Source: an uncultured Clostridia bacterium
GTDB taxonomy: Bacteria > Bacillota > Clostridia > Christensenellales > Borkfalkiaceae
Assembly: GCA_934271735.1 (NCBI GenBank)
Contig: CAKQSB010000005.1
Coordinates: forward strand, 86,614-150,613
Reading direction: 5' to 3'
Length of the DNA: 64,000 nucleotides
The notes under the pieces were generated by a model. It saw nothing but the letters and a program-made list of their open reading frames with translations, was not told the DNA's origin and ran no database searches. This document shows, one piece after another, positions 2,970 to 60,599 of this stretch (position 1 is the stretch's first letter; each line of letters starts with the position of its first letter). Made by a program: the position numbers and the translations under genes.

Positions 2970-3001
2970 TATATTTTTGTTTATTTTTCAAAGCCGCTTT
3001 A

Positions 3002-5764: not shown

Positions 5765-5765
5765 G

Positions 5766-5786
5766 CCGTTAATCGACTTATAGACG
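5766..5786 (-). repeat. Dispersed motif copy in reverse orientation, 2 bp after the lepA stop.
   Basis: ccgttaatcgacttatagacg. Confidence 0.7.
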
Positions 5787-5836
5787 AGTTTTTAAAGGTT
5801 GCAGACAAACTTTAAACAACCGCAAAGAGGATAAAA

Positions 5837-6946: not shown

Positions 6947-7006
6947 AAATTTTTTTCTAGACGCATCAAAAAAAGCACAATTACACCCGAAGATTAAAAG
7001 GATAAA

Positions 7007-10000: not shown

Positions 10001-10582
10001 GACTGCACGTTCACGACCGAAATGCTCGCGAACGTCGAGGAGGACGAGGACGGAAACAAAATTTACACCGACGTTAAAAACGATATGCCTGTTTACATAG
10101 GCGGAATTATCACCGCGTCGGACAAAATAACCACCAAATCGGGTTCGAATATGGCTTTCGTCACAATCGAAGATTCCTACGGGGCGATCGAATGTGTGTT
10201 CTTCCCCAAGACGTACGCGAAATTCAAGGACGATCTGAACGTAGAACAAGTTGTTAAGCTCCGCGGAAAATTGCAGATAAAGGACGAACGCGTAAGCATT
10301 CTCGCCGATTCCGTAGTTAAGATAAACGAAAACGAGCCGCAGGAAAACACGCCCGTCAAAAAGAAAAAAGATTATCTCGGCATTATCCTTCGCGACGACA
10401 CGAAAACCTTCAAAAACGAACTTATAGACATACTTTCCACCTATCCCGGCGACATAACCGTATGTTTTAAGATAGACGGGAAAAACTATATAATGACGCA
10501 GACCGTAAGGAACTGCAAAGGTCTTATAAACGAACTGCTCTCCATTGTGGACGAACAGGATATAAAATTCTTCTCAAACTGA
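7007..10582 (+). CDS. dnaE: DNA polymerase III alpha subunit (DnaE type).
   Basis: 1191 aa. N-terminal PHP domain (HLHVHTEYSILDG) and PolIII alpha core. Followed by pfkA as in many Clostridia. Confidence 0.95.
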   Translation: MGNFVHLHVHTEYSILDGATKIAVAAKKAKALGMPALAITDHGNMYGAVNFFDACEKEGIKAIIGTEFYVCDDLTYKNGKSKLNHLVLLCKNEEGYKNISLLNAIAFRDGFYYKPRIDLKTLEAHHDGLICLSACLAGDIPQAILNRDFEEAERLVVWFKNLFGEDFYLEMQNHLLEEQLEVNKYLRIYAKKYNIKLVVTNDVHYLERSDAESQDVLMCVQMGADYDDPKRLRFPNDEFYLKSYDEMASLFPNDSDALETTLEIADKCKFGFVYGHYMFPHYYPDTGEDPKTYIRNLIDNGIKKKYGKETPEIRERIESELAVIEKQGFIEYFLIVWDYINAARNMGISVGPGRGSGAGSIVAYLIGITNIDPLKYDLYFERFLNPERVSAPDFDVDFEDSRRQEVIEYVRRKYGENRVCKIVTFGTMAAKNAIKDVARVLKVSYSEADRVTKAMPNKLVRKNANGDEFDLKRPNIILKVFGKYHPKEGAKDYGVDFSVPELVNMYNESPEIKRVVDIAAKLEDSPRQASTHACGVIIGADILDQHMPLGRNGEDITSQYTGVELEHLGFLKMDFLGLRNLSDIKMAIDYIKQNHGVEIDFDKSTYDDPKVFELLSTGNTKAIFQIESAGFQKFMKELRPTSIEDIVAAVSLYRPGPMDSIPKFVKCKHNPELVTFAHPLLEPILKQTYGCIVYQEQVMKIVQALAGYTLGQADMVRRMMGKKKVDDMIKEEVIFIHGKGESVDKHGKVSTAIDGCLKRGVPEDVAHAIWNEMKDFAKYAFNKSHAAAYSLVTYQTAFLKCYYEAEFLTAVLNNRITNIDEIKNYISYAKEEGIKVLPPDINESVGYFSVKNNSIRYGLAAIKGIGIAAIESITAEREKNGRYLSFENFVSRCESKVLNKRLVENLIYAGAFDSFGKNRAQLIAIYDELIDRVMIIAKQRESDQLSLFGDLLTEDDSFTVTYPDIPEYDNKTKLSLEKNVTGVYVSGHPLDGFKSMFADCTFTTEMLANVEEDEDGNKIYTDVKNDMPVYIGGIITASDKITTKSGSNMAFVTIEDSYGAIECVFFPKTYAKFKDDLNVEQVVKLRGKLQIKDERVSILADSVVKINENEPQENTPVKKKKDYLGIILRDDTKTFKNELIDILSTYPGDITVCFKIDGKNYIMTQTVRNCKGLINELLSIVDEQDIKFFSN

Positions 10583-36397: not shown

Positions 36398-37090
36398 TTA
36401 TTCCTTTCTCGGATCGATATATTTGTAAGCGTTCTCGAATCTGCCGTAGTGACCCTTGGCTTTCTCGTACGCCTCGTTGGGAGTGAGACCTTTTTTGATA
36501 AAATCGGTCATTTTGCCGAGCGAAACGAACTCGTAACCGATAACCTGCATATCTTCGTCGAGAGCCATTCTCGTAACGTAGCCCTCTGCCATTTCAAGAT
36601 ATCTCGTACCCTTTTCCTTAGTTCCGTACATGGTTCCGACCTGCGAACGAAGTCCTTTTCCGAGGTCCTCGAGTCCCGCGCCGATAACAAGTCCGTCGTC
36701 GGAATAAGCCGACTGAGTACGTCCGTAAACTATCTGTAAGAAAAGTTCTCTCATTGCGGTGTTGATAGCGTCGCAGACAAGGTCGGTATTAAGAGCCTCG
36801 AGAATGGTTTTTCCGGGAAGAATCTCGGAAGCCATTGCCGCGGAGTGAGTCATACCCGAACAGCCGATGGTCTCGATCAAAGCCTCTTCGATAACGCCTT
36901 TTTTAACGTTGAGCGAAAGCTTGCAGGCTCCCTGCTGAGGAGCGCACCAACCGACGCCGTGAGTAAATCCGCTGATGTCGGTTATCTGCTTAGCTTCAAC
37001 CCAAAGCCCCTCTTCGGGGATAGGCGCGGGTCCGTGCTTAGGACCTTTCGCTACGCAGACCATATCCTTTACTTCGTTTGAATATTGCAT
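36398..37090 (-). CDS. NifU/IscU-like Fe-S scaffold-like protein, operonic with the GGGtGRT gene.
   Basis: 230 aa. IETIGCSGMTHSAAMA segment. 12 bp from the downstream gene. Confidence 0.45.
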   Translation of the reverse strand: MQYSNEVKDMVCVAKGPKHGPAPIPEEGLWVEAKQITDISGFTHGVGWCAPQQGACKLSLNVKKGVIEEALIETIGCSGMTHSAAMASEILPGKTILEALNTDLVCDAINTAMRELFLQIVYGRTQSAYSDDGLVIGAGLEDLGKGLRSQVGTMYGTKEKGTRYLEMAEGYVTRMALDEDMQVIGYEFVSLGKMTDFIKKGLTPNEAYEKAKGHYGRFENAYKYIDPRKE

Positions 37091-37366: not shown

Positions 37367-38515
37367 ATGAAGAAAATGAGAAAGACGGCGATAATTGCCG
37401 CCATATCCCTTTTGGTTTTATCTTTCGTCACGTTCTTTTCGGGCATACAGATTATGCGTGCGGAAAAAAGCGGCGCGGAAACAAATAAAACCGGTGAAAT
37501 TACCGACGTAATCACGGTAAAAAGCCCGATTCAGGGTTCGACGGTTACTTTGGACAATGAAAAAATCGCCGATTATTTCGAGCATTACTCCAAAGGCTAC
37601 AGCGTCAAAGCGGGTTACTTCGGGCAAGGCGATATTTTTATGATGAACCCCGTTAAATTCGAGTGGGAATGCGAGGACGGTTTATATTATCAGTTATATA
37701 TCGCCGACAATCTCGGGTTTTACGACGCAGAGAAATTCTTCACGACAAAGAATTACGCGGTGATCGAAAACCTCGTTCCCGAAACAAAGTATTACTGGAA
37801 AGTTAAGGTCGCTTTAAGCGGCGGCGAAGAAAAAACTTCCAAATCCTATTGTTTTGAAACGAAAGGCAACGTAAGAACCATAACTTTGGACGGAGTTTCC
37901 AACTCAAGAGACCTGGGCGGAATAAAAACCGCCGACGGAAAAGAAATAAAATACGGAATGGTTTATCGTTCCGCAAATCTTGATTCCGTTACCGAAAAAG
38001 GCAGAGCCGAGGCAAGAAGGCTCGGAATAAAAACCGACCTCGATTTACGCGGCGGAGACGCCCCGACTGCTTCCCCTCTCGGCTCAAATGTCAATCTTAT
38101 CGCAAAAAAAGCTCCGTGCTACACCGGCGACCCCTTTGGAATCAACGGCACGGAAGAATATCGCAATGCTTTAAGAGACGAAATAAAAGTTTTTGCATAT
38201 GAAGAAAACTACCCCGTCCTTTTTCATTGTCAGATAGGCAGAGACAGAACGGGAACTCTCGCAATGTTTATCTTGGCGATTTGCGGAGTTGAAAAAGAAG
38301 AAATTCTCAAAGATTACGAGCTGACATATTTCTCTCAGAACGGTACGACGGACGGCAAAACCGAATGTCCCGATTGGATCGATTATACCTGCGATTTTCT
38401 CGGCACGCTTTCCGAAACCGGCACGACGCTGAGCGAAAAAGCAATAAATTACGCTATAAGTCTCGGCGTTACCGAAACGGAGATAGCCTCCATTAAAAGA
38501 ATTTTAACGAGGTGA
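37367..38515 (+). CDS. Secreted or membrane-anchored protein: signal/anchor, FN3-like domain, protein tyrosine/dual-specificity phosphatase domain.
   Basis: 382 aa. N-terminal hydrophobic segment. HCQIGRDRTG CX5R P-loop. RBS caggaggaaaaa ATG. Confidence 0.75.
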   Translation: MKKMRKTAIIAAISLLVLSFVTFFSGIQIMRAEKSGAETNKTGEITDVITVKSPIQGSTVTLDNEKIADYFEHYSKGYSVKAGYFGQGDIFMMNPVKFEWECEDGLYYQLYIADNLGFYDAEKFFTTKNYAVIENLVPETKYYWKVKVALSGGEEKTSKSYCFETKGNVRTITLDGVSNSRDLGGIKTADGKEIKYGMVYRSANLDSVTEKGRAEARRLGIKTDLDLRGGDAPTASPLGSNVNLIAKKAPCYTGDPFGINGTEEYRNALRDEIKVFAYEENYPVLFHCQIGRDRTGTLAMFILAICGVEKEEILKDYELTYFSQNGTTDGKTECPDWIDYTCDFLGTLSETGTTLSEKAINYAISLGVTETEIASIKRILTR

Positions 38516-40533
38516 CGAATATGAAAAAATTATTTTTAATTCTTACGATAATTTTATCTTCCGTTTTATGTCTTACCTTTACGGGCGGTTCGCAGAAAAC
38601 GCTTGCGGAAAACAGCGGCAACGTTTACGATATATCCGAAGTTTCGTCGATCGCTCCCGGCGGAGAGTTGGAATTTTACGGACAACTTCTCATGGTCGGC
38701 AACAAACAGCTCGAAAATAAGGATTCCGTCAAATTTCTTTACAAAATAGCAAACCTCGAAAAATACGTTCGTTCGGCCTTCGGAATAGGCTGTTACGGAT
38801 TCTATTTCAGTTATGACGTCGGCAAACCGATTTCCGTTAAAAAATGCGATTTTAACGGAAGCAAATGGGGGCGCGCCGAAGAAGTTTTTTCGGAAACCGA
38901 AACGACGTCATTTTCCGATTATATAGAAATGACTCTTAAAATCGAAGAAACCGCCGAAAACAAGATAACTCTTTCCCTTTCTTACGAAATCGGCGGTAAA
39001 CAAAGAAGCGTGTCGGCGGAGTTTGATAAAGCGGAATCCGATATGAAACTTCGTTTCGGTGAAAACGCCGATCAACAGTATTCCGAAGTTTACATAAAAT
39101 CTTTACTGCCCGCCGCCACTTTCGGAGACGGTTCGTTTGAGTATGTAAACTACAACAATAACGCAGGGAAAAACATTTCGGGAAAATGCATGCTCGGAAC
39201 GGTCGGAACTTCCGATGCGGAAAAATTCGGCGTTCCGTCGGGTTATAACGGAAACGTTCTCAAAATCGAAGGACTTACCCCCACCGGTTCGCTCGATATG
39301 TCGTTCGATTTTTCCGCCGCAAACATAAAGAGAGAACGCGTAAAAAGCATTTCTTTCAGAATTTACGTTACGGCTACTTCTTCCGATACGGACAAATATC
39401 CCGTTCTGCGCGTTCCGAATTACGGAAGCACGTCGGCTTTCACGGCATATCCCGTAGGAAACAATACAAACAAATGGTTAAACGTTTCTTTCAACGAAAA
39501 CCAGATCGATAACATCTGCTCCGCCGGAAAGCTCACGAAATTCACGTTATGGTTCAGAACAAACGCCAGAACGATTATTTATATCGATTCGTTTAAGGTC
39601 GATCTTATTCCTCTGGACGAAACGCCGCCCGTTATAAGCGCGCCTATTACCGAATTTAATCTGACCGCCGGAGTTTATCCTCTCGACGATTCGGTTACCG
39701 CTACCGACGATTCGGGAGAGGTGAGTTTACAAAGAATCTGGTCGGACGGAGCCTTGGATAATCGCGGAAGGCTTACGGCGGGAACGCATACCTGCAAAGT
39801 TATAGCGACGGATCCGAGCGGAAATACAAGCGAAGTCACCTTACATTATAACGTTACGACAGAAGCCGATCTCGAAAAATATTCGATTACCTTCCGTTTC
39901 GAGGGAATAGACGAAGTTACCGTCGAATATTACAAAGGCGGGGAAGATTACGTTACTATTCCTTCCGTACCCGAGAGAAAACACTACGATTTCGTCACCG
40001 ACGAGATTGTATTCAACTACACCTCTAATCAGGTCGTGAACGGATATTACGTCGCCACCGTTTATAAGGTAAATTATTATGTTGACGGCGCGCTTTACAC
40101 CTCTGTTTCTTATACCGTAGAAAATATTTACAATTTTGCAGAACCCGACGTTCCCGCAAAAAAAGGCTGTCGCGGACAATGGGAGGACTATCTGCTTAAT
40201 TATGAAAACGTGAACGTAAACGCCGTGTATACGCCTAAAGAAACTTCGTCGGAATCCGAAAAAGAAACCCCTTCGGAAAGCGAAAGCAAATCCGAAAAAG
40301 AAACCCCTTCGGAAAGCGAAAGCAAATCCGAAAACGAAACTGAAAGCAAATCCGGAATTCCGGGAACGGAATCCGCGGGAAACGCGTCGGATAATAACAC
40401 CCCGAGCGCCACGGAAAGCGGAAAAACTGAAAACAAAGGTTGCGGTTCTGCGGCAAACGCAACGCCGATTGCACTGCTTGTCGTTTTGTTCTCGTCTCTT
40501 GCGGCTGTAATGATAAAACGCAAACAAAGCTAA
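38512..40533 (+). CDS. Large secreted protein with a Ser/Glu-rich tandem repeat and a C-terminal hydrophobic helix plus KRKQS tail (no LPXTG).
   Basis: 673 aa. Signal peptide. 2 x perfect 36 bp repeat at 40255-40326 encoding SEKETPSESESK. C-terminal ...ATPIALLVVLFSSLAAVMIKRKQS. Start overlaps the upstream gene stop. Confidence 0.7.
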   Translation: MTNMKKLFLILTIILSSVLCLTFTGGSQKTLAENSGNVYDISEVSSIAPGGELEFYGQLLMVGNKQLENKDSVKFLYKIANLEKYVRSAFGIGCYGFYFSYDVGKPISVKKCDFNGSKWGRAEEVFSETETTSFSDYIEMTLKIEETAENKITLSLSYEIGGKQRSVSAEFDKAESDMKLRFGENADQQYSEVYIKSLLPAATFGDGSFEYVNYNNNAGKNISGKCMLGTVGTSDAEKFGVPSGYNGNVLKIEGLTPTGSLDMSFDFSAANIKRERVKSISFRIYVTATSSDTDKYPVLRVPNYGSTSAFTAYPVGNNTNKWLNVSFNENQIDNICSAGKLTKFTLWFRTNARTIIYIDSFKVDLIPLDETPPVISAPITEFNLTAGVYPLDDSVTATDDSGEVSLQRIWSDGALDNRGRLTAGTHTCKVIATDPSGNTSEVTLHYNVTTEADLEKYSITFRFEGIDEVTVEYYKGGEDYVTIPSVPERKHYDFVTDEIVFNYTSNQVVNGYYVATVYKVNYYVDGALYTSVSYTVENIYNFAEPDVPAKKGCRGQWEDYLLNYENVNVNAVYTPKETSSESEKETPSESESKSEKETPSESESKSENETESKSGIPGTESAGNASDNNTPSATESGKTENKGCGSAANATPIALLVVLFSSLAAVMIKRKQS

Positions 40534-40810: not shown

Positions 40811-42016
40811 ATGAAAAACGTAATGGACGTTCTCGAAGAACGCGGATTTATAAAACAGACCGTTTACGGCGAAGACTTGAGAAAGAAACTCGAAACCGAA
40901 AGCGTTACATTTTACGTCGGCTTCGACCCGACGGCGGACAGTCTCCATATCGGACATTATATTCCCATTATGGCAATGGCTTGGATGCAGAGATACGGTC
41001 ATCGCCCCATCGCGCTTTTCGGCGGCGGCACGGGCATGATCGGCGACCCCTCGGGCAGATCGGATATGCGCCAGATGATGACGAGAGAGACTATCGACCA
41101 CAATATCGAATGCTTTAAAAAGCAAATGTCCCGTTTCATAAATTTCGATGGAGAAAACGGCGCGATAATCGCCAACAACGCGGACTGGCTTTTAGACCTT
41201 AATTATATCGAATTCCTCCGCGATATCGGCGTTTACTTCTCCGTAAACAAAATGCTCACGGCGGAATGTTTCAAACAGCGAATGGAAAAGGGGCTTACCT
41301 TCTTTGAATTTAACTATATGTTAATGCAGGGTTACGACTTTTTGCATCTCAACCAAAAATACGGCTGCTCGCTTGAGGTGGGCGGCGATGATCAGTGGTC
41401 GAATATGCTCGCGGGCGTGGACCTTATCCGCAGAAAGGAACAGAAGGACGCTTACTGCTTAACCTGCACTCTCCTTTTGAACAGCGAAGGCAAAAAAATG
41501 GGCAAAACGCAGAAAGGCGCGCTCTGGCTCGACGAAAACAAATGCTCCGTTTACGATTTCTATCAGTATTTCAGAAACGTTGAAGACTGCAAAGTTGCGG
41601 AGTGTATGCGTCTTTTAACCTTTATGGATATGGACGAAATCGCCGAACTTACCAGATATAACGACGAGAGAATGAACGCGGCTAAGGAAAGACTTGCTTA
41701 CGAAGTTACCAAGCTCGTTCACGGCGAGAAAAAAGCCGAACAGGCAAGAAAGCAGGCTAAGGCGGCATTCGGCGGCAACGCGGAAGATATGCCCTCTTAC
41801 AACGCAAACGGCGCGGATAACATTCTCGACATTATGATCGGCGCGGGCGTTGCCAAATCCAAGGGCGAAGCGAGAAGACTTATCGAGGGCGGCGGCGTTT
41901 CTATAGGCGACGTTAAGCTCACCGTGAACGATCTCGCGATCTCTCCCGAAGTCAAAGCCAAAGGCAACTTTATTCTCCACAAAGGCAAAAAAGTTCACAT
42001 CAACGTTATTTTATAA
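40811..42016 (+). CDS. tyrS: Tyrosine--tRNA ligase.
   Basis: 401 aa. HIGHY (HIGH), [19 protein letters not shown] (KMSKS), C-terminal S4 domain. Confidence 0.95.
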
Positions 42017-42028
42017 CATATTTTATTA

Positions 42029-42075
42029 AAAAAAACGTCGTTTGGCAGTACCCTGTCGGACGACGTTTTGTTTTT
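42029..42075 (+). terminator. Rho-independent terminator of tyrS.
   Basis: aaaaaaacgtcg...cgacgttttgttttt. Confidence 0.65.
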
Positions 42076-42120
42076 ACTTTTTTAAGAAATATTTTTATTA
42101 TCAAATTTAATCGATTTTAT

Positions 42121-42480
42121 TTCGACCGATTTCGCCACGACTTAATCCGACAAAATTCTCCACGACTTGATCCGACAATTTTCAACCCGGCTTAATCCGT
42201 CAGATTTCGACTTGTCTTTTTTCGACCGATTTCGACCTGTCTTAATCCGACAAGTTTCGACTTGGCTTGTTTCGACAAATTTCGATTTTGTTTTTTCGAC
42301 CGGATTCGCCCCGATTTATTCCGACAATTTTCGACTTGATTTATTCGACAAAATTCTCCCCGACTTTATCCGACGGCTTTCTCCGCTCACCGATTTCGAC
42401 GACCTTCGTTTTATTATTACACGCGTTCGATTTCGTTTCGACGGTTTTCGACGTTTGTCGACGGTTTTCGACGCAATACT
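42121..42480. repeat. Degenerate tandem array of about 12-14 units with an ~25 bp period, unit TTCGAC(N6-8)CTTAATCCGACAANT.
   Basis: Units start at about 42121, 42146, 42181, 42206, 42231, 42256, 42281 and onward. The 194 aa ORF through it (42167..42751) is low-complexity and not credible. Confidence 0.65.
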
Positions 42481-42740
42481 TTACGCCCTTAGGTGTTTAA
42501 TCTGTTTACTTCACCTTATGATTATGCTAAAATATTTTAGCCGAGTGAAGTTTTATGCGGCTAAGATTTTGGAAACGAATTTCGGTAAAAAAATGTCTGA
42601 AAATACAGGGGGTCGGCAAAAGTTTGCAAGAGAATTTTCGGCATTTTACAACAAACTAACGCTCGCACACCGACAAAGACGTAAAGATAACGCGAGTCGA
42701 AAAGCCGAACAAAAAAAACGAAAATTCACGCAGAAAAATT

Positions 42741-43190
42741 TTAAGTTCTGAAATCGGATCTGCCGAGAAGATAATCGGGCGAAACGCCGAAATAATCCGA
42801 TAAAATTTCCAAAGTGTCGATCATCGGGATAAACTTTTGTTTGAGCCAGTGCAAAATCAGGCTGTCGTCGATACCGCAATCGTGCCCGACCTTGTAAAAC
42901 GAAGTTTTCTTTTCGGCGCACAGTTCGAGAAATCGCTCGTGGAAAGTCGCGGCGGAATCGGTTTTGATAAAATCGTTCTCTTTGGTTTTTCCGAGAAGGT
43001 AATTGATTGACACTTCGAAATAATCGGCGATTTTAACGAGGATTTTCGTTGTCGGTATTATTCCGTATGCGGTTGCCGAAAAGAACGACGAATTGCTTAT
43101 GCCGATTTTCAATCTAAGTTCTGTTTTCGTCAGATACGTTTCATCCGCTAAATAATTTATTCTCTTCTTAAATGCTTCGGAAACAGGCAT
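42741..43190 (-). CDS. XRE-family regulator with two HTH_XRE domains.
   Basis: 149 aa. Two repeats each ending ...INYLLGK / ...PDYLLGRS. Confidence 0.75.
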   Translation of the reverse strand: MPVSEAFKKRINYLADETYLTKTELRLKIGISNSSFFSATAYGIIPTTKILVKIADYFEVSINYLLGKTKENDFIKTDSAATFHERFLELCAEKKTSFYKVGHDCGIDDSLILHWLKQKFIPMIDTLEILSDYFGVSPDYLLGRSDFRT

Positions 43191-43406
43191 ACAACCTCCA
43201 TTATCGACAAAGTGTATAATTCTTAATCTTCACCTATAAATAATATAATTTTGTTTACGGTTTTACTATGAACGATACGTTTAGTTTACCTAACGATAAA
43301 AGGAAATTTTAATGTAAAAACCGTCAAAAAAAAAGCATAAAACAAGAAAAAAACGGAAATGCCCGTTTTCGGATAAACAAAATAAAAAACAAAGGAGGAA
43401 TTCACA

Positions 43407-43748
43407 ATGAACATTGACTACGAAAAACTGGATTTTGTAAGCGAAACAAAGCCTATCTGCGGTTCTTTTTCCGAAAAACGCTATCAAAAAGCGTACGCCG
43501 ACACGCTGAAAAGATTTTTGAAATCGGCTGAAAAATACTACGCGCCCGGCGAATTCGACGAAAGACACGAGACCGAAATTTTCGAAAATCGTTTAAAACA
43601 ACGGTGCGCAACCCTCGCGACTTTTCCGGAAGAAGTTCTTAAAAAGCTTAAGAACTTCAGATTCCTTGTACTCGGATATTGTCACCGCGACGAAAAAACC
43701 GCTTTGGTTTCGTACTGTCTTCAGACGTGGAAAAAACGCCCCGATTGA
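43407..43748 (+). CDS. Small hypothetical protein (113 aa), divergent from the XRE gene.
   Basis: Strong RBS aaaggagga N7 ATG. No recognisable domain. Confidence 0.55.
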   Translation: MNIDYEKLDFVSETKPICGSFSEKRYQKAYADTLKRFLKSAEKYYAPGEFDERHETEIFENRLKQRCATLATFPEEVLKKLKNFRFLVLGYCHRDEKTALVSYCLQTWKKRPD

Positions 43749-43953
43749 ACCGGATTTTGTTTTTTTAGCGATATTAAAGGCAATTTCAACGCGATATCGG
43801 AGCCGCTTGCAAATGAAAAAAATTCCATAAAATGCGAATGAAAATACAAATAAAAATTTTTTCGAAAAAGGGGGCATAAACGCTTGACGGCAAAACCCGA
43901 ACGCCGCCTTTTGCCGTTTCCCTTGGCGCGACCGCGGATTTTCGACTTTTTTC

Positions 43954-44045
43954 GAATCCACACAAACATACGTTTTTGTGGATAACTGTGGATAACTTTC
44001 GGTAAAACAGGTGGGTTATCCACATTGTAGAAAAAGTTATCAACA
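43954..44045. promoter_or_regulatory. DnaA-box cluster with three perfect and two imperfect boxes.
   Basis: TGTGGATAA at 43977-43985 and 43987-43995 (reverse complement TTATCCACA). TTATCCACA at 44016-44024. TTATCAACA at 44037-44045. GAATCCACA at 43954-43962. Confidence 0.6.
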
Positions 44046-44290
44046 GAATTTGCTTGTTTACGGTGTTTTCAAGCCGAAAAAGTCTATGTGAAAATTTGTA
44101 TTAAATTTCGCATTTTTCGGCTTAGCCGAACTCGGGGTTTTTCCGGAAAAGCACGTCAAAAGCATTTACGACAAAAAATATCGGCGACTTAATCCTTAAA
44201 GAACTTAATCCTTAAAGATAAGCCGCCGACTTATATAATTTATGTTTGTTTTATTACGTTTTATATTCGTTACTTAGCGCCGTCGGAAAT

Positions 44291-46398: not shown

Positions 46399-48999
46399 AT
46401 GTTATCGGAAATGCAGGCGAAAGCCGTAAAAGAGTTTGACAGAAACATTTTAATGCTCGCAAGAGCCGGTACGGGCAAGACGTATACCGTGGCGCAGAAA
46501 ATCGTCGAGGCGGATAAACTCGGTATAGACGCCGATAAAATTCTGTGTCTCACGTTCACCGTGAAAGCCGCCGACGAGCTTAAGGACGATATTATGAAAT
46601 CCTGTGGCGATTTCCGCCCGGAGGTCTATACGATACACGGATTTTGTTATAAACTTATGCGGGAATACGGACGGAAAACGGGAAAATTTTCCGATAAGCA
46701 GATTGCCGACGAAATCGACGAAGGCGAGATTTTAAAGGCTGTTTTAAACGATTATATCGCTTCGGGAGACTATAAAACGGCGGACGGATTCGTTCCCACG
46801 CTCACGAAAAACCTCGTTAAAGCCGTTTCCATGATAAAACACCGCCGCGCGGAATCGGGTTATAACTATTTTTCGCCGAGCGGCTACGGCGCGGCGATAA
46901 ATTCGCTCGCGGCAAGCAGCAAAGAATTCAGAGACTGTTTCGTCGTCAAAAAAGGAGCGGCGAGATACACCGACGAAAATCTTATCGGTTTTTTGAAAGC
47001 CAAGGGTTCGGAATTTATGGAGAAATACCGCTTTGTTTTAAACTCCTCCGCCCTTTGCGATTTCGACGATTTAATCTTCTCCGCAAAGGAAATAGTTTCG
47101 GACATCAACTATCAAAAGCCCGCCTATAAGTTGATTATCGTGGATGAAATGCAGGATACGAGCTTTTATGAGTACGAGATTATGAAATACTTTTTCAAAA
47201 ACGCGAACGTGCTTATGTGCGGCGACGAATACCAGACGATTTACGGCTGGAGAGGGTCGAAACCGTTCGAGATAATCGATGACTTCAAAAGAAACTATAA
47301 CCCTCTCGTTATAAATCTCGACAAAAACAGGCGTTCCGCGCCCGTTCTCTCTTATGCCGCCGCATACTATCTCAAATCGGCTTTCGGCGCAAAAACCGAA
47401 CTCCCGCCCGCGGGCGAAATCCCGGACGAAGATAAAATCGATATCGTCGGTTGCAAGGACGCGAAAGACGAAGCGAAATTCGTTTTCGAAAAGGTCGGCG
47501 CGTTTAAAGGCGAAGCTTCGGAAATCTGCGTTATGGCGCGTTCCAACAGATATATTGCCGATCTTTACAGAGAGCTTACGGAAATCAACTCCTCTTTGCC
47601 CGCCGAGAACAGACTTGCTTTTTTCACGGCCGACACTCATTTCCAATTTTACAAAAAACCGATAATCAAAGACGCGCTCGCTTTTTTAAGGCTTATTTTA
47701 AACCCCGACGACGAAGCTTCGTTTTTAAGAATAGCTCCGAAATGCGTTAAAACCGTTACCTGCGAAATGATCGCGGCTTTGAACGATTATTCCTCGTTAG
47801 GGCTTTCCGCGGGACAATTTCTGTCCGACGAAGTATATCGTTTTTCCGATTACTACGAGCCGCTTTTATACGCTTACGACAAAGGCGAAATAATCGTTTA
47901 CGACCTCGAAACGACGGGGCTCGATCTCGATAACGACGAAGCCATTCAGATTTCCGCCGTGAAAACGGGCAAAAACGGGATAAAAGAAACGTTTAACGAG
48001 TTCATTCTCCCCGAAATCGAAATAAAAAGTTCCGCCGTTTCCGTCCACGGTTACGACAAGGAATACATAAAAGCTCACGGCGGCAGGAACGCAAAAGAGG
48101 TGCTGAAAGATTTCTGCGCCTTTACGAAAGGCTGCGTTCTTATCGGGCATAACAGCTCCTCTTTCGACGATATCATTCTGGAAAGAGAGCTGAAATCGTA
48201 CTCTTTGCCCCACTCCTTTCCTTACCGCTACGACACGCTTAAAATCGCCGCTCTTTTAAAGCCGCAGACGGGCGATTATAAACTCGAAACGCTCTGCAAG
48301 GCTTTCGATATAAAGAACGTCCGCGCTCACGACGCTTTTTCGGACGTATCGGCAACCGAACAGGTTCTTAAAGTTTTTATCGAAAAATACCTTTACCCCA
48401 CAAGACAGGCGAGAAAGACCGTCACCGAACGATATGCCGACGTTTTCAAAGGTTTTTACGACCTTATATATACAATGAAAGCCTTGCTTTTGAAAAACGA
48501 TGTTTTAACGCTTATCAAAGAGATCGGCGAAACGCTCGGGCTTAACCAGCCGAAATCCGCAGCCGCGGCTATGGCGGACAAGGAATCTTTAAACGATTTA
48601 TACCGCGCGCTCAAAGGTTATATAGGAAACAACGAACCGCTCAGTTTCTTAAAATCCTTTTTGCGGGACGTTTCCCTTTCGGGAAGTCAGATGGACGTTA
48701 TCGTAAAGAAATTCAACAAAGTTCCGCTCGTCACCGTTCACCAGTCCAAAGGGTGCGAGTTCAAAGAGGTGATTCTCGTCGGTATGGGCGAAAACGAATT
48801 CCCGTCCTATAAAGCCGTGGAAACGCATAACGAAGAAGAGGAAAAGAGGGTCTTCTACGTTGCCATAACGCGCGCGAAAGAAAAGCTCGTCATAACTTAT
48901 CCGAAATACAAAACGTTTTACGACGTGAGTTACCGCCGCGCTCCCTCGCCCTTTTTATCCCTCCTGCCCGACGACGCCGTGAACGAAATCAAACGGTAA
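46399..48999 (+). CDS. UvrD/PcrA-family SF1 helicase with an embedded DnaQ-like DEDDh 3'-5' exonuclease domain.
   Basis: 866 aa. Helicase motifs: AGTGKT (I), TFTVKAADEL (Ia), IVDEMQD (II), GDEYQTIYGWRGS (III), 2B-domain DALAFLRLILNPDDEASFLRI, VHQSKGCEF (V), YVAITRAKEKL (VI). Exonuclease motifs: VYDLETTGLD (Exo I), IGHNSSSFD (Exo II), AHDAFSDVSAT (Exo III, DEDDh), inserted between the 2B region and motif V. Confidence 0.85.
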   Translation: MLSEMQAKAVKEFDRNILMLARAGTGKTYTVAQKIVEADKLGIDADKILCLTFTVKAADELKDDIMKSCGDFRPEVYTIHGFCYKLMREYGRKTGKFSDKQIADEIDEGEILKAVLNDYIASGDYKTADGFVPTLTKNLVKAVSMIKHRRAESGYNYFSPSGYGAAINSLAASSKEFRDCFVVKKGAARYTDENLIGFLKAKGSEFMEKYRFVLNSSALCDFDDLIFSAKEIVSDINYQKPAYKLIIVDEMQDTSFYEYEIMKYFFKNANVLMCGDEYQTIYGWRGSKPFEIIDDFKRNYNPLVINLDKNRRSAPVLSYAAAYYLKSAFGAKTELPPAGEIPDEDKIDIVGCKDAKDEAKFVFEKVGAFKGEASEICVMARSNRYIADLYRELTEINSSLPAENRLAFFTADTHFQFYKKPIIKDALAFLRLILNPDDEASFLRIAPKCVKTVTCEMIAALNDYSSLGLSAGQFLSDEVYRFSDYYEPLLYAYDKGEIIVYDLETTGLDLDNDEAIQISAVKTGKNGIKETFNEFILPEIEIKSSAVSVHGYDKEYIKAHGGRNAKEVLKDFCAFTKGCVLIGHNSSSFDDIILERELKSYSLPHSFPYRYDTLKIAALLKPQTGDYKLETLCKAFDIKNVRAHDAFSDVSATEQVLKVFIEKYLYPTRQARKTVTERYADVFKGFYDLIYTMKALLLKNDVLTLIKEIGETLGLNQPKSAAAAMADKESLNDLYRALKGYIGNNEPLSFLKSFLRDVSLSGSQMDVIVKKFNKVPLVTVHQSKGCEFKEVILVGMGENEFPSYKAVETHNEEEEKRVFYVAITRAKEKLVITYPKYKTFYDVSYRRAPSPFLSLLPDDAVNEIKR
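47122..47140 (+). repeat. Variant motif copy (TTG instead of TCG) inside the helicase coding sequence, in-frame Y-K-L-I-I.
   Basis: gcctataagttgattatcg. Confidence 0.4.
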
Positions 49000-49096: not shown

Positions 49097-49125
49097 TTGA
49101 CATTTGGCGCGAACCGTAGTAATAT
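49097..49125 (+). promoter_or_regulatory. Candidate pyrG promoter TTGACA-17-TAATAT.
   Basis: ttgacatttggcgcgaaccgtagtaatat. Confidence 0.5.
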
Positions 49126-50941: not shown

Positions 50942-53044
50942 ATGAAAGACACTAAGGTTGAAAAGCTTTTCGCGGAAAACGTCTTTACGGACGTTGAAAT
51001 GGAAAAGAGAATTTCCAAAGAAGCATACGACAGTTACAGAAAAACGGTCGACGAAAACGTGCCGCTCGCCAAAAAAGCCGCGGACGAAATCGCCAAAGCG
51101 ATGATGGCATGGGCAATGGAAAAAGGCGCAACGCATTACACTCACTGGTTTCAACCTATGACGGGCGTTACCGCCGAAAAACACGAAGCTTTCATCGAGC
51201 CCGACGGAAAAGGCGGCGTCGTTACCAAATTTTCAGGCAAAACGCTCGTTAAGGGCGAACCCGACGCGTCGAGTTTCCCCAGCGGCGGACTCCGCTCCAC
51301 TTTCGAAGCGAGAGGTTACACGGCTTGGGATCCTTCGTCCAAAGCGTTCGTAAGAGACGGTTCTTTGTATATCCCCACAATTTTCTGCTCCTACGGCGGC
51401 GAATCGCTCGATAAAAAAACTCCGCTTTTGAAAAGTATCGAAGCTTTGAACAAACAAGTTCTCAGAATCATGCGCCTTTTCGGCGATAAAGAAACCAAAA
51501 AGATTATTTCCACCGTCGGTGCGGAACAGGAATATTTCCTTGTCGACAAGGGAGTTTACGAAGAAAGGCTCGACCTCGCGACTTGCGGAAGAACGCTTTT
51601 CGGAGCTCACCCCCCGAAAGGTCAGGAACTTGAAGACCATTATTTCGGAAAAATCAAACAGCGCGTATGGGATTATATGAGCGATCTCGACGAAGAGCTC
51701 TGGAAACTCGGAGTTTACGCGAAAACAAAGCATAACGAAGTCGCGCCCGCTCAGCACGAACTCGCCTGCGTTTACACTCCGTCCAACGACGCGGTAGACC
51801 ACAACCAGATAGTTATGTCGGTTATGAAATCGGTTGCGAACCGCCACGGAATGGTTTGTCTGCTCCACGAAAAGCCGTTCGACGGCATCAACGGAAGCGG
51901 CAAACACAACAACTGGTCTATGGCGACCGATCGCGGCGAAAATCTACTCGATCCGACCGACCACCCCGAAAACAACCCGAGATTTCTCCTTATCCTCGTC
52001 GCGGTTATAACGGCTGTGGATAAATATCAGGATCTGCTCCGTATTTCGGTAGCTTCCGCCGGCAACGACCACAGACTCGGAGCGAACGAAGCGCCCCCGG
52101 CAATCGTTTCTATGTTTATCGGCGAGGAGCTTGAAAACATTCTCTCTTCTATCGAACGCGGCGCAAAATACAGCGAGATAAAAGCCGAAGTTTTGAAAAT
52201 CACGAGCGGACTTATCCCCAAATTCGATAAGGACAAGACAGACAGAAACAGAACCTCGCCGTTCGCGTTTACGGGCAATAAATTCGAATTCCGTATGGTC
52301 GGCTCGGACATGTCGGTTTCGGCGGCGAACGTCGTTATAAACACCATCGTTTCCGACGTTTTAAGCGATTTTGCGGACGAGCTTTCTTCCGCGAAAGATT
52401 TCGACGCGGCGGTCATCGATATTATCAGAAAGAGCTATTCCGAACATAAACGTATCGTTTTCAACGGAAACAACTACTCCGACGAATGGGTTAAAGAAGC
52501 CGAAAAACGCGGACTTTTAAATCTTAAGACGACCGTCGACGCGCTTCCTTATTATCTCAAGAAAAAGAACATCGATTTGTTCGTCCGCCACGGTGTTTTA
52601 ACCGAGACCGAAGTTAAATCGAGATACGAAATACAGCTCGACTCTTACGTTAAGATTATCGAAGTGGAAGCGAAAACAATGCTGAATATGGCAAGAAGAG
52701 AAATCCTTCCCGCCGCGATAGGTTATTCGGACGAACTCGCAAACGGACTTGCGGCTAAGGCTTCTATAGGCTTGGACATCGAAAAAACCGCCGATAAACG
52801 GCTTATAGACAGGCTTATGAAGCTTAATGATAAACTTTTGAAAGCGATAGAGAAGCTCGAAAAAGACATTAAGGCCGCCGCCACAAAGAAGGAAAGCTTA
52901 GAGATTGCCGAATATCACAGAGACGTGATTATCCCCGATATGGATAAGTTGAGAGCGATTTCGGACGAACTCGAAACGATTGTAGACAAAGCGTACTGGA
53001 ATTTCCCGACGTACACGGAAATCCTCTCAAGCGTTATGTATTAA
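50942..53044 (+). CDS. glnN: Glutamine synthetase type III.
   Basis: 700 aa, GSIII length. GS catalytic-domain signatures. 14 bp after pyrG. Confidence 0.85.
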   Translation: MKDTKVEKLFAENVFTDVEMEKRISKEAYDSYRKTVDENVPLAKKAADEIAKAMMAWAMEKGATHYTHWFQPMTGVTAEKHEAFIEPDGKGGVVTKFSGKTLVKGEPDASSFPSGGLRSTFEARGYTAWDPSSKAFVRDGSLYIPTIFCSYGGESLDKKTPLLKSIEALNKQVLRIMRLFGDKETKKIISTVGAEQEYFLVDKGVYEERLDLATCGRTLFGAHPPKGQELEDHYFGKIKQRVWDYMSDLDEELWKLGVYAKTKHNEVAPAQHELACVYTPSNDAVDHNQIVMSVMKSVANRHGMVCLLHEKPFDGINGSGKHNNWSMATDRGENLLDPTDHPENNPRFLLILVAVITAVDKYQDLLRISVASAGNDHRLGANEAPPAIVSMFIGEELENILSSIERGAKYSEIKAEVLKITSGLIPKFDKDKTDRNRTSPFAFTGNKFEFRMVGSDMSVSAANVVINTIVSDVLSDFADELSSAKDFDAAVIDIIRKSYSEHKRIVFNGNNYSDEWVKEAEKRGLLNLKTTVDALPYYLKKKNIDLFVRHGVLTETEVKSRYEIQLDSYVKIIEVEAKTMLNMARREILPAAIGYSDELANGLAAKASIGLDIEKTADKRLIDRLMKLNDKLLKAIEKLEKDIKAAATKKESLEIAEYHRDVIIPDMDKLRAISDELETIVDKAYWNFPTYTEILSSVMY

Positions 53045-53939: not shown

Positions 53940-55451
53940 TCAATCTTTTCTGTTGATAACGGAAATATCGAGTTCCATTCCGAGCTTGCCGTCGTTACCT
54001 TTTTCCACGGTAACCTTTCCGCTCGCTTCGTCCTTTATAACCTTTCTGTATTTTCCGCCGGTTATAAGTCCGCAGATATCGAAACTGTATTTTTCCCTTT
54101 CCGTAAGATACGGCATAAGCTCGTCCACGTTCTCTTTCGCAACGTAACCGACGTGATGCAAAGCCTTCATATCCCAGTCGTATATGTAAACTTTGATTTT
54201 ATCGCCGTCGACGACAAGTCCCGTACGCTTGAATTCCTGTTCCGCGTACTCGTAAACTATATCGTTTTCATACTCTTCTTTAATCTCGCTCATTTTAAGT
54301 CCGTCGTACTTATCGATATATCCGAGCTTGACGCCTTGTTTGATCTCTTCGTCGAGTATGTTCTTGACTTTTATACCCTCTTCGTTGTCCTTATCCGTTC
54401 CGATTACGTTCGCCGTGCAGTTGAACAGAATTTCGTTCGGTCTGTAAATAAGCTTTCTGCCGCGCTTAACGCAGATATTCGCGAGGATTTCCTCAAGATT
54501 TGCGGGAGCGGTAAGCTTGAACGCTTCTTTTTCGGGTTTCGCCTGCGGTTCGGATTGTTCCGCCGCTTCGGTTTCGTCCTTTTCTTCAGTCTCTTTCTCT
54601 TCGCTTTCCGCTTCTTCCGCGACTTCTTCGATTACGTCGGGAGTTTCTATCGCCGCTTCCACGATTTCTTCCGCTTCGGTCTCCTCTTCGGATTCTGTCG
54701 TTTCTTCCGCAACTTCTTCGGTCGCATCCGCTTCTTCGATAGCGTTTTCAACCGTTTCCACGGCTTCCTCCTCTTCCGTTTCGGGTTCTTCTTTAACTTC
54801 TTCCGCGGGAGCTTCTTCCTCGACTTCTTCGATTACGTCGGGGGTTTCTATCGCCGCTTCCACGGCTTCTTCCGCTTCGGTCTCCTCTTCGGATTCTGTC
54901 GTTTCTTCCGCAACTTCTTCGGTCGCGTCCGCTTCTTCGATAGCGTTTTCAACCGTTTCCACGGCTTCTTCCTCTTCCGTTTCGGGTTCTTCTTTAACTT
55001 CGTCTTCTGGAATCTCTTCAACCGATTCGGGAGATTCCTCGCCGTTTTCCGCCGCTAAATTTTCAACTTCCTCGGCAGTTCCGTCAAGACTTCCTTCCTC
55101 TTCGAGTATTTCGTCGGACTCCTCTTCGGTCGCATCCAAAGGAGTTTCGTCCAAACCTGTTTCCTCTGCCTGTTCGGTTTCCTCGCAAACAACCTCTTCC
55201 GTCTCTTTCGAAACTCCTTCCTCTTCGGGAGCAACCTCTTCTGCGGGAACTTCCGCTTCCGCGACTACTTCCTCATCAGCCGTAATCTCGTTTTCGGGTT
55301 CGATTACAGGTTCGACTACGTTTTCGGAATTATCGTTTTCGACGATTGCTTCGAGAACTTCCGTTCCCTCCGCAACCTCTTGCTCTTTACGTTCGTCGGT
55401 TACGACGCGATTTATTCTGATCGCCGACGGTCTCTTTTTCATTCTACGCAT
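53940..55451 (-). CDS. Highly acidic Glu/Thr/Ala-rich protein with a basic N-terminus, an internal ~70 aa tandem duplication and a C-terminal ~170 aa globular domain of unknown function.
   Basis: 503 aa. The opposite-strand ORFs 53874..55058 and 54517..55467 are low-complexity shadows. Confidence 0.6.
   Translation of the reverse strand: MRRMKKRPSAIRINRVVTDERKEQEVAEGTEVLEAIVENDNSENVVEPVIEPENEITADEEVVAEAEVPAEEVAPEEEGVSKETEEVVCEETEQAEETGLDETPLDATEEESDEILEEEGSLDGTAEEVENLAAENGEESPESVEEIPEDEVKEEPETEEEEAVETVENAIEEADATEEVAEETTESEEETEAEEAVEAAIETPDVIEEVEEEAPAEEVKEEPETEEEEAVETVENAIEEADATEEVAEETTESEEETEAEEIVEAAIETPDVIEEVAEEAESEEKETEEKDETEAAEQSEPQAKPEKEAFKLTAPANLEEILANICVKRGRKLIYRPNEILFNCTANVIGTDKDNEEGIKVKNILDEEIKQGVKLGYIDKYDGLKMSEIKEEYENDIVYEYAEQEFKRTGLVVDGDKIKVYIYDWDMKALHHVGYVAKENVDELMPYLTEREKYSFDICGLITGGKYRKVIKDEASGKVTVEKGNDGKLGMELDISVINRKD
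54590..55025. repeat. Near-perfect ~210 bp tandem duplication inside the acidic-protein gene.
   Basis: gacttcttcgattacgtcggg... recurs at about 54621 and 54832, with long identical runs (…ctcctcttcggattctgtcgtttcttccgcaacttcttcggtcgc…). Confidence 0.7.
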
Positions 55452-55706: not shown

Positions 55707-56792
55707 TTACACCGAATACTTTTCTTTCTGAACCCTTATAAGTTCTTCGTCCGAAAAATAATTTATCTTCATCGCGGACTTGACTTCCGTCAAAGTCGCG
55801 GCGGCTGCTTTTTCGGCTTTCTCGCTGCCGCGTTTCAAAATTTCGTACACGGCGGGAATATCTTTTTCGCACTCTTTTCTTCTTGCTCTTATCGGCTCTA
55901 AGATAGACTGAACGACTTCGTTAAGGAATTTTTTCACTTTCATATCGCCCAAGCCTCCTCTCGTGTAATGAGCTTTAAGCTCGTCGAGATTAGCGTAATC
56001 GGGAAGGAAAGCTTTGAAATGCTCGTCGGTCGCGAAAGCGTCGAGATAAGTGAACACGGCGTTGCCCTCGAGTTTGCCGGGGTCGGAAACCTTGATATGA
56101 TCGGGGTCGGTGTACATACTCATTATTTTTTTCTTTACGTCGTCCGCGGTATCGGCAAGGTAAATGCAGTTGCCGAGCGATTTGCTCATTTTCGCTTTTC
56201 CGTCCGTTCCGGGAAGTCTTAAACAAGCCTTTCTCTCAGGCAGCATCGCTTCGGGTTCGACCAGAGTTTCGCCGTAAACGGAATTGAATTTTCTTACGAT
56301 TTCTTTTGTCTGCTCGATCATCGGGAGCTGATCCTCGCCTACGGGAACGATATTCGCTTTGAACGCGGTTATATCCGCCGCCTGGCTTATAGGATAAGTG
56401 AAAAATCCCACGGGTATGCTCGTTTCGAAATTACGCATCTGAATTTCGCTTTTAACCGTCGGGTTTCTCTGCAAACGCGAAACGGTAACGAGATTCATAT
56501 AATAAAACGAAAGCTCGGTAAGCTCGGGAACCTGCGACTGGATAAAGAAATTTACCTTGTCGGGAGAAAGTCCGCAGGAGAGATAATCAAGCGCGACTTC
56601 TATTATGTTCTGTCTTACCTTTTCGGGATTTTCGGCGTTATCTGTGAGAGCCTGAGCGTCGGCTATCATAATGTACATTTCGTCGTAGCCGCCCTCGTTC
56701 TGAATTTTCACTCTCTCCGCGAGAGAACCTACGTAATGTCCGACGTGAAGTCTCCCCGTCGGGCGGTCGCCCGTTAAAATTATCTTTTTCAT
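55707..56792 (-). CDS. trpS: Tryptophan--tRNA ligase.
   Basis: 361 aa. [16 protein letters not shown] (HIGH-type) and KMSKSLGN. Confidence 0.9.
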
Positions 56793-59582: not shown

Positions 59583-60599
59583 TTATTTCAAGCGTTTTAG
59601 ACCGCTTTTGACGTTTTCGGAAATTTTAACGTCCGTCGTCGCCTTATTTATTTCGCTTTTTGCGTCCGCGATAAGCCGTTTACTCAGAAACGGGCTTAAC
59701 GTATACTCGTTTTTCGAGAAATCGTACCCGTAAAAATCGACTTCATCACTCGTCTTTCCGTCCGTCCGCATCATACCGATTTTATAAAGTTTTTTCTGAA
59801 CGTTTTCGGACAAAAGCAGCTCGATCGCAAGCTTGCAATAGCGATATTTTTCATCGTTTTTTGTCGTTATAGCGATATATTGAACAAGGTCGGAATACCC
59901 CTCGAGCGGGTGTACGGTAAATTCGTCTTTTTTCTTTTCTATTCGCTTTATATCCCTTTGCGTACCGAGAAGAACGGCGTTTTCCTCGGAAAGAAAACGG
60001 GAATAAGCGTCTTTCGGCAGAAGATAAACGGCGTTTGCCGTTATCCCGAGATGTTTAAGCGATAAAACGGGTAGAATGTTTTCTCCGTCCGAAACGATAA
60101 GATTTTCTATCGTCTTTGCAGAATTGCTTGCAAAAAGTCCGTCTATAAGTCGATTATCTCCGCTTTTAGCGATTAAATAATAACCGCCGAAGCACCAAGG
60201 CGCGGCGACAACTCTTCCGTTTAACTCACCGCCGAAAAAGTTTTTGAAAGGCAATTCTCTCGCATACTTTAAAGTTTCATCCGCGCCGACGCCGAAAGAA
60301 ATCAGATCGGGGATTTCGCCTTTTTCAAAAGCTTTTTCCATACTTTCCGTCGTCTGAGTTTTAACGAACGTAACGACGCCGTCGTCGCTTAAAGGTTTTA
60401 ACGAGGATGAAAGAAAATCGGCCCTCGAACCCGTTCCGCCCTCAAACGTGTCTATATGCCACACGGTAAGCACGGTTTTATATTGCCCCGAAGAAAACGG
60501 GGTGTTTTTCTCTCTCGTTTTCGGCGCGGCAAAAAAAATCACGAAAACCGCCGTGAAAACGCAGAGCGCGAACGAAACCGCCCTTATTACTGTTTTCAT
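59583..60599 (-). CDS. Membrane-anchored extracytoplasmic protein, possibly solute-binding-protein-like, of unknown function.
   Basis: 338 aa. N-terminal TM/signal segment. 4 bp from murB. Confidence 0.5.
   Translation of the reverse strand: MKTVIRAVSFALCVFTAVFVIFFAAPKTREKNTPFSSGQYKTVLTVWHIDTFEGGTGSRADFLSSSLKPLSDDGVVTFVKTQTTESMEKAFEKGEIPDLISFGVGADETLKYARELPFKNFFGGELNGRVVAAPWCFGGYYLIAKSGDNRLIDGLFASNSAKTIENLIVSDGENILPVLSLKHLGITANAVYLLPKDAYSRFLSEENAVLLGTQRDIKRIEKKKDEFTVHPLEGYSDLVQYIAITTKNDEKYRYCKLAIELLLSENVQKKLYKIGMMRTDGKTSDEVDFYGYDFSKNEYTLSPFLSKRLIADAKSEINKATTDVKISENVKSGLKRLK
60139..60162 (+). repeat. Dispersed motif copy inside the 59583..60599 coding sequence. The gene strand reads G-D-N-R-L-I-D.
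   Basis: ccgtctataagtcgattatctcc. Confidence 0.7.

Follow-up and report, generated by a model that had tools for sequence, protein, structure and literature searches.

A predicted UvrD-family helicase with a DEDDh exonuclease nested in its 2B subdomain, encoded by an uncultured Clostridia bacterium

The gene and the domains of its product

A stretch of 64,000 nucleotides from an uncultured Clostridia bacterium (assembly GCA_934271735.1, contig CAKQSB010000005.1, positions 86,614 to 150,613), in the following called the window, harbors a gene encoding a predicted superfamily 1A (SF1A) helicase of the UvrD family which carries a DEDDh-type exonuclease within the same polypeptide. The gene consists of a single open reading frame (ORF) with an ATG start and no internal stop codons (Table 1). 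The database protein P0001 is 99% identical to its product, comprises 862 amino acids and would begin at M5; the start codon is therefore ambiguous between 46399 and 46411. No obvious Shine-Dalgarno sequence precedes either ATG. A scan for promoters and terminators around the gene gave counts not above those of shuffled sequence, and its sole good promoter-like site was located at 49097-49125, ahead of pyrG.

Pfam searches identified UvrD-helicase (PF00580, 3.9e-43, 148.5 bits, cut-off 23), UvrD_C (PF13361, residues 305-835, 7.3e-65, 220.1 bits, cut-off 25.6), RNase_T (PF00929, residues 499-655, 6e-21, 76.1 bits, cut-off 24) and UvrD_C_2 (residues 777-832). The UvrD_C profile was matched from position 1 to 348 of 350, and the match therefore bridges an insert. 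Motifs Q, I, Ia, II, III, IV, V and VI occur together with Pfam domains above the gathering score, as in SF1A helicases, and the combination of Exo I DxE, Exo II D and Exo III Hx4D with RNase_T above the gathering score is that of a DEDDh exonuclease. All helicase and exonuclease motifs quoted by the first-pass annotation of this DNA were recovered in the ORF at their places. In an alignment of 38 family sequences, the Q residue and the catalytic residues of motifs I, Ia, II, III, IV, V and VI were invariant, and so were the DEDDh residues D502, E504, D590, H644 and D649. On sequence grounds, these results confirmed that an SF1A helicase of the UvrD family and a complete DEDDh exonuclease are joined in a single polypeptide, as that annotation had proposed.

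Table 1. Features of the helicase-exonuclease gene and its product; positions refer to the window.
Feature	Position	Strand	Residues	Basis or remark
Whole gene	46399..48999	+		866-aa helicase-exonuclease; stop codon within range; alternative start 46411
N-terminal UvrD-helicase region, domains 1A/1B	46405..47298	+	3-300	Pfam PF00580; holds Q6, Walker A, Ia, II, III
First part of UvrD_C: N-terminal halves of 2A and 2B	47311..47889	+	305-497	PF13361; UvrD and cross-phylum alignments
Nested DEDDh (DnaQ/RNase T-fold) 3'-5' exonuclease domain (predicted)	47890..48393	+	498-665	PF00929; PolC/DnaQ matches; pLDDT about 90-96
Helical linker and 2B C-terminal helices	48394..48714	+	666-772	Model secondary structure; alignments
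C-terminal half of motor domain 2A, motifs V and VI	48715..48996	+	773-866	UvrD_C_2; UvrD alignment
Q residue		+	Q6	Helicase motif
Walker A (motif I) ARAGTGKT	46459-46482	+	21-28	SF1A motif
Motif Ia TFTVKAA	46552-46572	+	52-58	SF1A motif
Motif II VDEMQDT	47140-47160	+	248-254	SF1A motif
Motif III GDEYQTIYGWRG	47221-47256	+	275-286	SF1A motif
Motif IV NRRS	47326-47337	+	310-313	SF1A motif
GIG-equivalent KTVTCE, degenerate	47749-47766	+		2B; cross-phylum alignment
Exo I DLETTG	47902-47919	+	502-507	DEDDh motif
Exo II HNSSSFD	48148-48168	+	584-590	DEDDh motif
Exo III HDAFSD	48328-48345	+	644-649	DEDDh motif
Motif V TVHQSKGCEF	48733-48762	+	779-788	SF1A motif
Motif VI FYVAITRAK	48853-48879	+	819-827	SF1A motif

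The position of the insert was determined by alignment. Residues 208-447 of the protein correspond to residues 175-412 of Escherichia coli UvrD, and residues 705-865 to 484-645. Given these alignment breaks and the limits of UvrD 2B, which we take to be roughly residues 378-550, the about 250 extra residues sit inside 2B. Hence, the earlier placement of the exonuclease inside the helicase stands, but not its placement between 2B and motif V. In a cross-phylum alignment, which combined the family in six phyla with ordinary UvrD/PcrA genes of the same genome scan (described below), the insert always starts about 45 residues past the GIG/helix-hairpin-helix element, and the C-terminal 2B helices come after it. 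It comprises a DEDDh fold of about 170 amino acids and a helical linker; a 30-residue helix at 669-698 is seen in the secondary structure of the model, and R672 within it is invariant in the family alignment. The GIG position itself is degenerate in the window protein (T452-V453-T454) and reads G[VI]G in most relatives. The C-terminus aligns to UvrD residue 645, and profile NF008743 was matched only to position 645 of 720; a C-terminal extension or Tudor domain is therefore absent.

AlphaFold2, run on the family alignment, returned a model with a mean predicted local distance difference test score (pLDDT) of 88.7 and a predicted TM-score (pTM) of 0.80; the exonuclease and the linker helices reached a pLDDT of 90-96. 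The model suggests that the enlarged 2B would be compact rather than a floppy tether. Foldseek comparison with the PDB retrieved UvrD, PcrA, Rep, UvrD1, AdnB, AddA and RecB, all covering the motor only, with query-normalised TM-scores of about 0.5. The top structural match was UvrD (2IS6, target-normalised TM-score 0.67), followed by PcrA, Rep and MtUvrD1. No PDB entry with the combined helicase-exonuclease fold was found in sequence and Foldseek searches of this database.

Distribution and genomic context

PF00929 and the UvrD domains occur together in all of the 120 best database homologs. Reference genomes, one per species, were scanned and the order of domains was checked with custom domain-order hidden Markov models. 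The order helN-mid-exo-helC was found in 59 loci. These include many Clostridia metagenome-assembled genomes (MAGs; Christensenellales, Ca. Scatosoma), eight Veillonella, Clostridium perfringens and another Clostridium, as well as Prevotella/Alloprevotella/Porphyromonadaceae, Poribacteria, a Myxococcota MAG and Vibrio comitans. The nested architecture is furthermore present in Acetoanaerobium noterae, Prevotella nigrescens and on a Chryseobacterium plasmid. Additionally, the insert alone (residues 440-720) was searched against 1.84 billion representative sequences, which yielded 42 matches at E≤1e-30. Among the best 150 representatives, 105 were fully nested and 26 were fragments; the nested order is thus present in at least 105 distinct clusters of 50% identity. 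The 131 nested and fragmentary representatives retained Exo I in at least 121 cases, Exo II in 129 and Exo III in all. As judged from these sequences, both predicted active sites were shown to be intact and maintained by purifying selection in at least 105 sequence clusters from several phyla, with the putative exonuclease nested at the same 2B position throughout the family. Loss of the catalytic residues on proper alignment, which had been named as a reason to abandon the annotation, was seen neither in the 38-sequence alignment nor as a trend among the 131 representatives.

A neighbour-joining tree of 596 helicase-only columns set ordinary UvrD/PcrA apart from the insert-bearing proteins with a bootstrap value of 46/100; a single origin of the insert would be compatible with this tree, which does not prove it. 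Clusters of 90% identity comprised 611 members for Veillonella, 820 for P. nigrescens and only 18 for C. perfringens (P0121-P0135), and the version in C. perfringens is therefore probably an accessory or one-lineage gene in that species.

Some relatives differ in length. P0058, P0071, P0073, P0090 and P0102 (about 910-1050 amino acids) contain an extra insert in 1B with a CxxC...CxxC pattern (e.g. CPSCKK...CAECG) that resembles a zinc ribbon; the window protein lacks this 1B insert. The version of Vibrio comitans (L069, 8975-12646) comprises 1,223 amino acids, with an N-terminal extension of 325 residues without Pfam match, and an Endonuclease I gene adjoins it.

The window locus is core chromosome with housekeeping genes, as the first-pass annotation had described it. 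Genes present are dnaE, aspS, recG, fakA, adhE, tyrS, two DegV genes, pyrG, the gene for a type III glutamine synthetase (glnA), trpS, whiA and murB; DegV and pyrG are the immediate neighbours of the helicase-exonuclease gene. Housekeeping contexts were likewise found in P. nigrescens, A. noterae and Veillonella. In all eight Veillonella loci (L035-L037, L039, L041, L042, L045, L048) dnaX-ybaB-recR immediately precedes the gene and purA follows it. In five loci of Clostridia/Ca. Scatosoma MAGs (L017, L018, L019, L023, L024) it is followed at a distance of 21-57 bp by genes for an SbcD-like metallophosphoesterase (355 amino acids) and then an SbcC-like SMC/AAA_23 ATPase (853 amino acids), which suggests that the helicase-exonuclease gene is co-transcribed there with genes of an end-processing nuclease. 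The recR and sbcCD-like neighbourhoods give a hint of DNA metabolism in these two lineages.

Several other features of the window and of related loci were recorded. The type III glutamine synthetase gene (window 50942-53044) follows the helicase-exonuclease gene in the same orientation in members of two phyla, namely in Clostridia (L001, L002, L005, L010, L011, L021, L022) and Prevotellaceae (L051-L053). It is directly adjacent (82-603 bp) in most of these loci, and pyrG lies between the two genes in the window and its closest relatives. The Prevotellaceae proteins share 43-44% identity (glutamine synthetase) and 25-26% identity (helicase) with those of the window, and the linkage could reflect an ancient block transfer or coincidence. 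Aminoacyl-tRNA synthetase genes, which in Firmicutes often carry T-box leaders, are located at 12957-14759 (aspS), 40811-42016 (tyrS) and 55707-56792 (trpS-like). Over the whole window (1-64000), there were no Rfam matches at gathering thresholds and no tRNA genes. About 1.5 kb without an ORF of at least 150 amino acids (42751-44290) separates an ORF of 194 amino acids from the DegV pair, and the bin 42001-44000 shows a low GC content of 0.39. ORFs without Pfam match at E≤1e-5 are located at 36398-37090 (230 amino acids), 38512-40533 (673), 53940-55451 (503) and 59583-60599 (338).

Proposed function and alternative explanations

We consider it fairly probable that the protein is a stand-alone bifunctional enzyme of chromosomal DNA maintenance, i.e. 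a paralog beside PcrA/UvrD which combines an ATP-driven SF1A motor with a metal-dependent DEDDh exonuclease nested in 2B. Most likely, a single chain would serve in repair by both unwinding and degrading DNA strands with 3' ends, with a presumed coupling of motor and exonuclease. The characterised UvrD, Rep, PcrA, RecB and AddA motors all translocate 3'-5' on single-stranded DNA (ssDNA), and we infer the same polarity for the motor encoded in the window. The best NCBIfam match of the exonuclease domain was PolC (1.4e-30), followed by DnaQ, DinG-exo and Cas2-DEDDh; PolC (9QPC, 2P1J) and DnaQ were also among the matching PDB chains. The score for DNA polymerase III epsilon (TIGR00573) of 63.8 bits stayed below the cut-off of 71.5, and DinG-exo (PRK08074 / TIGR01407) matched residues 498-663 only, with 68.5 bits (3.2e-19) against a cut-off of 789, so that neither class can be assigned. 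DNA 3' ends are favoured as substrate because the exonuclease is closest to the PolC/DnaQ proofreaders; the domain probably trims free 3' ends of DNA.

In UvrD-family helicases, 2B is a swivelling regulatory subdomain whose GIG motif touches the duplex when the monomer is autoinhibited, and deletion of 2B unmasks helicase activity; in the active dimer, the 2B-2B interface is built from residues immediately following GIG, the ssDNA path runs 2A-1A-2A-1A, and the tracked strand is thus bound on its 3' side by the trailing subunit (PMC11912403, PMC13646824). In the window protein, the exonuclease would be grafted beside the surface that forms this interface, and because of this location it may take the place of the trailing subunit. 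There it would receive the 3' end of the strand drawn from the duplex by the motor, and a single chain would both unwind and digest the 3'-ended strand from a nick, gap or end. By covering the autoinhibitory and dimer surface of 2B, the exonuclease might even create a constitutively active monomeric helicase which feeds the tracked 3' end to its own exonuclease; we put this forward as a tentative and rather doubtful proposal. If true, the protein would represent a self-contained strand-excision engine in anaerobes, e.g. for nick-directed excision of mismatches or lesions, and a natural experiment on the control of SF1A helicases by 2B.

Several points weigh against such a role. Clustering of neighbours over the 59 loci revealed no neighbour conserved family-wide, which makes the assignment to a pathway weak, and the proximity to recR or sbcCD does not go beyond synteny at the level of lineages. 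A search for LexA boxes (GAAC-N4-GTTC, at most one mismatch) upstream of the 59 loci found none in the window and scattered one-mismatch matches elsewhere. Furthermore, structures of monomeric UvrD with DNA show 2B turned towards the duplex in front of the junction, and the 3' end of the tracked strand exits on the opposite side at 1A. A direct hand-off of the 3' end is therefore not obvious, as 2B and the exiting end lie on different sides.

The protein might instead be the PcrA/UvrD ortholog of its lineage, equipped with an accessory domain and serving the usual roles in removal of RecA filaments, replication-transcription conflicts and nucleotide excision or mismatch repair. UvrD, PcrA and Rep are indeed the closest structures and family models for the motor. 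However, the scores reached only about a quarter of the equivalog cut-offs for PcrA (TIGR01073, 229.3 vs 911.2 bits), UvrD (TIGR01075, 209.5 vs 1144.45 bits) and Rep (TIGR01074, 214.6 vs 951.45 bits), the C-terminal domain, which binds RNA polymerase in PcrA/UvrD, is absent, and a canonical UvrD/PcrA gene is present alongside in a chromosome-sized record of A. noterae and in a replicon of P. nigrescens. By these comparisons, the helicase-exonuclease is most likely a paralog distinct from the ordinary PcrA/UvrD of the cell. The rarity of the C. perfringens version and the separation of ordinary UvrD/PcrA in the helicase-only tree, the latter with its low bootstrap value, point in the same direction, and we regard orthology as unlikely.

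An RNA or RNA-DNA hybrid substrate was also considered, in which case the motor would strip R-loops or transcripts and the RNase T-fold domain would trim RNA 3' ends. The Pfam RNase_T family contains many RNases; furthermore, R-loop suppression is attributed to PcrA/UvrD (PMC8318588) and 3'-5' exo(ribo)nuclease activity to B. subtilis DinG (PMC12525004). Against this, the best exonuclease matches are PolC, DnaQ, DinG-exo and Cas2-DEDDh and not RNase T, Orn or RNase D, and the region by which PcrA/UvrD would contact RNA polymerase is missing. A function on RNA therefore seems as improbable as orthology to PcrA/UvrD.

Single-polypeptide helicase-nucleases can also act as anti-phage or anti-plasmid effectors which degrade invading DNA, and the first-pass annotation had cautiously suggested such a role. 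PADLOC models gave strong matches (RTasHel 8.5e-87, GajB and a Cas-associated DEDDh model), but these are generic to the two domains, and the GajB models cover the generic motor only. The sole foothold for defence is a distant homolog with 25% identity and nested architecture, encoded in a defence-type operon on the Chryseobacterium plasmid pA2BH1, with a type III R-M system as its neighbour. At the window locus the suggestion did not hold: the context is core metabolism, as it is housekeeping in P. nigrescens, A. noterae and Veillonella. No defence partner is conserved over the 59 loci, the nested architecture occurs in none of the 182 matching records among 50,697 phage records searched and in only 3 of 2.9 million IMG/VR contigs, and gene order is stable within lineages, unlike that of a variable defence island. 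A defence function of the window protein appears very unlikely.

Finally, a sequencing or assembly artefact or a frameshift joining two neighbouring genes, against which the first-pass annotation had itself cautioned, can be dismissed because helicase motifs flank the exonuclease on both sides in a single frame, composition is even between exonuclease insert and remainder of the gene (GC 0.468 vs 0.466; GC at third codon positions, GC3, 0.58 vs 0.57), and the nested architecture recurs in hundreds of independent assemblies and isolate genomes from many phyla.

More specific candidates were considered as well. An identity with Gabija GajB was discarded, as no GajA OLD-family nuclease adjoins the gene (neighbours DegV and pyrG) and no partner is conserved in the 59 loci. 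Nhi and Hna models were not among the best 25 of 63 PADLOC matches. Phage origin was discarded since no phage record (0/182) carries the architecture and the examined IMG/VR contig L083 represents host flank beside a prophage integrase; contig L084 shares two upstream ORFs with L083.

Two distant homologs deserve mention in their own right. Plasmid pA2BH1 (NZ_MN657149.1, L082) carries at 1-10526 an apparent defence operon with genes for, in this order, a DNA methyltransferase, a small protein resembling type II restriction endonucleases, a type III Res helicase, an ATPase and the helicase. The ATPase (1,612 amino acids) is TmtA/MkoA-like with a sacsin-like N-terminus, and the gene for the UvrD-DEDDh helicase (859 amino acids, nested architecture) lies 12 bp downstream of it; the two may form an undescribed two-gene defence module. 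IMG/VR contig L085 (4913-8607) encodes a distant nested helicase-exonuclease of 875 amino acids whose gene starts at the stop codon of a gene with an FGE-sulfatase domain. The surrounding ORFs lack Pfam matches, and this locus could be viral or conflict-related.

Significance and comparison with known systems

A search of the accessible literature found no description of a UvrD-type motor with a DEDDh domain nested in its 2B, no NCBIfam model fits the helicase-exonuclease, and public records carry the generic names '3'-5' exonuclease', 'ATP-dependent DNA helicase', 'UvrD-helicase domain-containing protein' and 'AAA family ATPase'. Together with the negative PDB searches, this is consistent with the earlier statement that the architecture is uncharacterised. 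Helicase-nuclease fusions as such are already known and recur in the processing of DNA ends and strands (RecBCD/AddAB, DinG-exo, WRN, Dna2); the nesting of a DEDDh domain in 2B of a UvrD-type motor appears to be unstudied. The helicase-exonuclease is not conceptually surprising, yet it is real, widespread in gut anaerobes, tractable and informative on 2B regulation. The regulatory part played by the swivelling 2B of SF1A helicases is debated and has been linked to autoinhibition, dimerisation and contact with the duplex, and an enzyme of 170 residues beside the dimer interface offers a direct handle on how 2B controls unwinding. Furthermore, members are common among anaerobes of medical relevance that can be cultivated (Veillonella, Prevotella nigrescens, some C. 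perfringens); in these bacteria strand-excision nucleases are poorly defined, and both genetics and biochemistry are feasible.

With UvrD, PcrA and Rep the window protein shares the four-subdomain motor (1A, 1B, 2A, 2B) with all SF1A motifs, and these enzymes are its best structural matches; it differs by the DEDDh domain and linker in 2B, the degenerate GIG and the absent C-terminal domain. RecB, AddA and AdnB, weaker structural matches, likewise combine a UvrD-like SF1A 3'-5' motor and a nuclease acting on the 3'-ended strand in one chain. Their nuclease, however, is a C-terminal PD-(D/E)XK RecB-type endonuclease, and they work in heteromeric complexes, whereas the window family has no conserved partner gene. 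No Pfam match to a PD-(D/E)XK RecB-type nuclease was found in the window protein, and the AddA and RecB models hit the motor alone, far below their cut-offs.

WRN pairs a 3'-5' helicase with a 3'-5' exonuclease in one chain, and the likeness to WRN and to Firmicutes DinG drawn in the first-pass annotation is a fair one. The shared feature is the pairing of polarities in a single chain; WRN has a eukaryotic SF2 RecQ motor, not homologous to that of the window protein, and its DnaQ-fold exonuclease is N-terminal. The nearest relative of the window exonuclease is the proofreading domain of PolC, itself a DEDDh domain nested within a domain of another enzyme; the host enzyme is a polymerase in PolC and a helicase here. 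GajB, ArmD and the reverse transcriptase-associated helicase (RTasHel) have UvrD-family cores, and PADLOC models match the window motor, but they possess partner genes and reside in defence islands, whereas the window gene lacks GajA or any other partner and lies in a housekeeping context.

DinG of Firmicutes (S. aureus DinG, B. subtilis DinG-exo) also unites a DEDDh 3'-5' exonuclease and a helicase in one polypeptide, and the exonucleases are homologous; a PDB chain of DinG (8ZEF) matches the exonuclease domain with 1.3e-09. S. aureus DinG was proposed to be an integrated nuclease-helicase in repair, with a 5'-3' motor and an exonuclease that works on the strand opposite to it (PMC12345164). 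The helicase core of DinG is XPD-like, belongs to SF2 and runs 5'-3', and the exonuclease is N-terminal, whereas the window protein is of the SF1A type with the exonuclease nested in 2B. Because of the opposite motor polarity, assigned to the window protein by homology, and the different placement of the exonuclease, the strand logic must differ. The dedicated excision pathway of MrfA and MrfB in B. subtilis likewise relies on a helicase together with a DEDDh exonuclease (bioRxiv 10.1101/2024.02.15.580553), but there each activity has a protein of its own, and the helicase MrfA is of the YprA type within SF2. For the proposed single-chain repair enzyme, the functional counterparts would be strand excision by UvrD plus ExoI/ExoX, the motor-nuclease of RecB/AddA, or MrfA/MrfB, with a strand logic akin to the RecB/AddA arrangement and to the polarity pairing of WRN.

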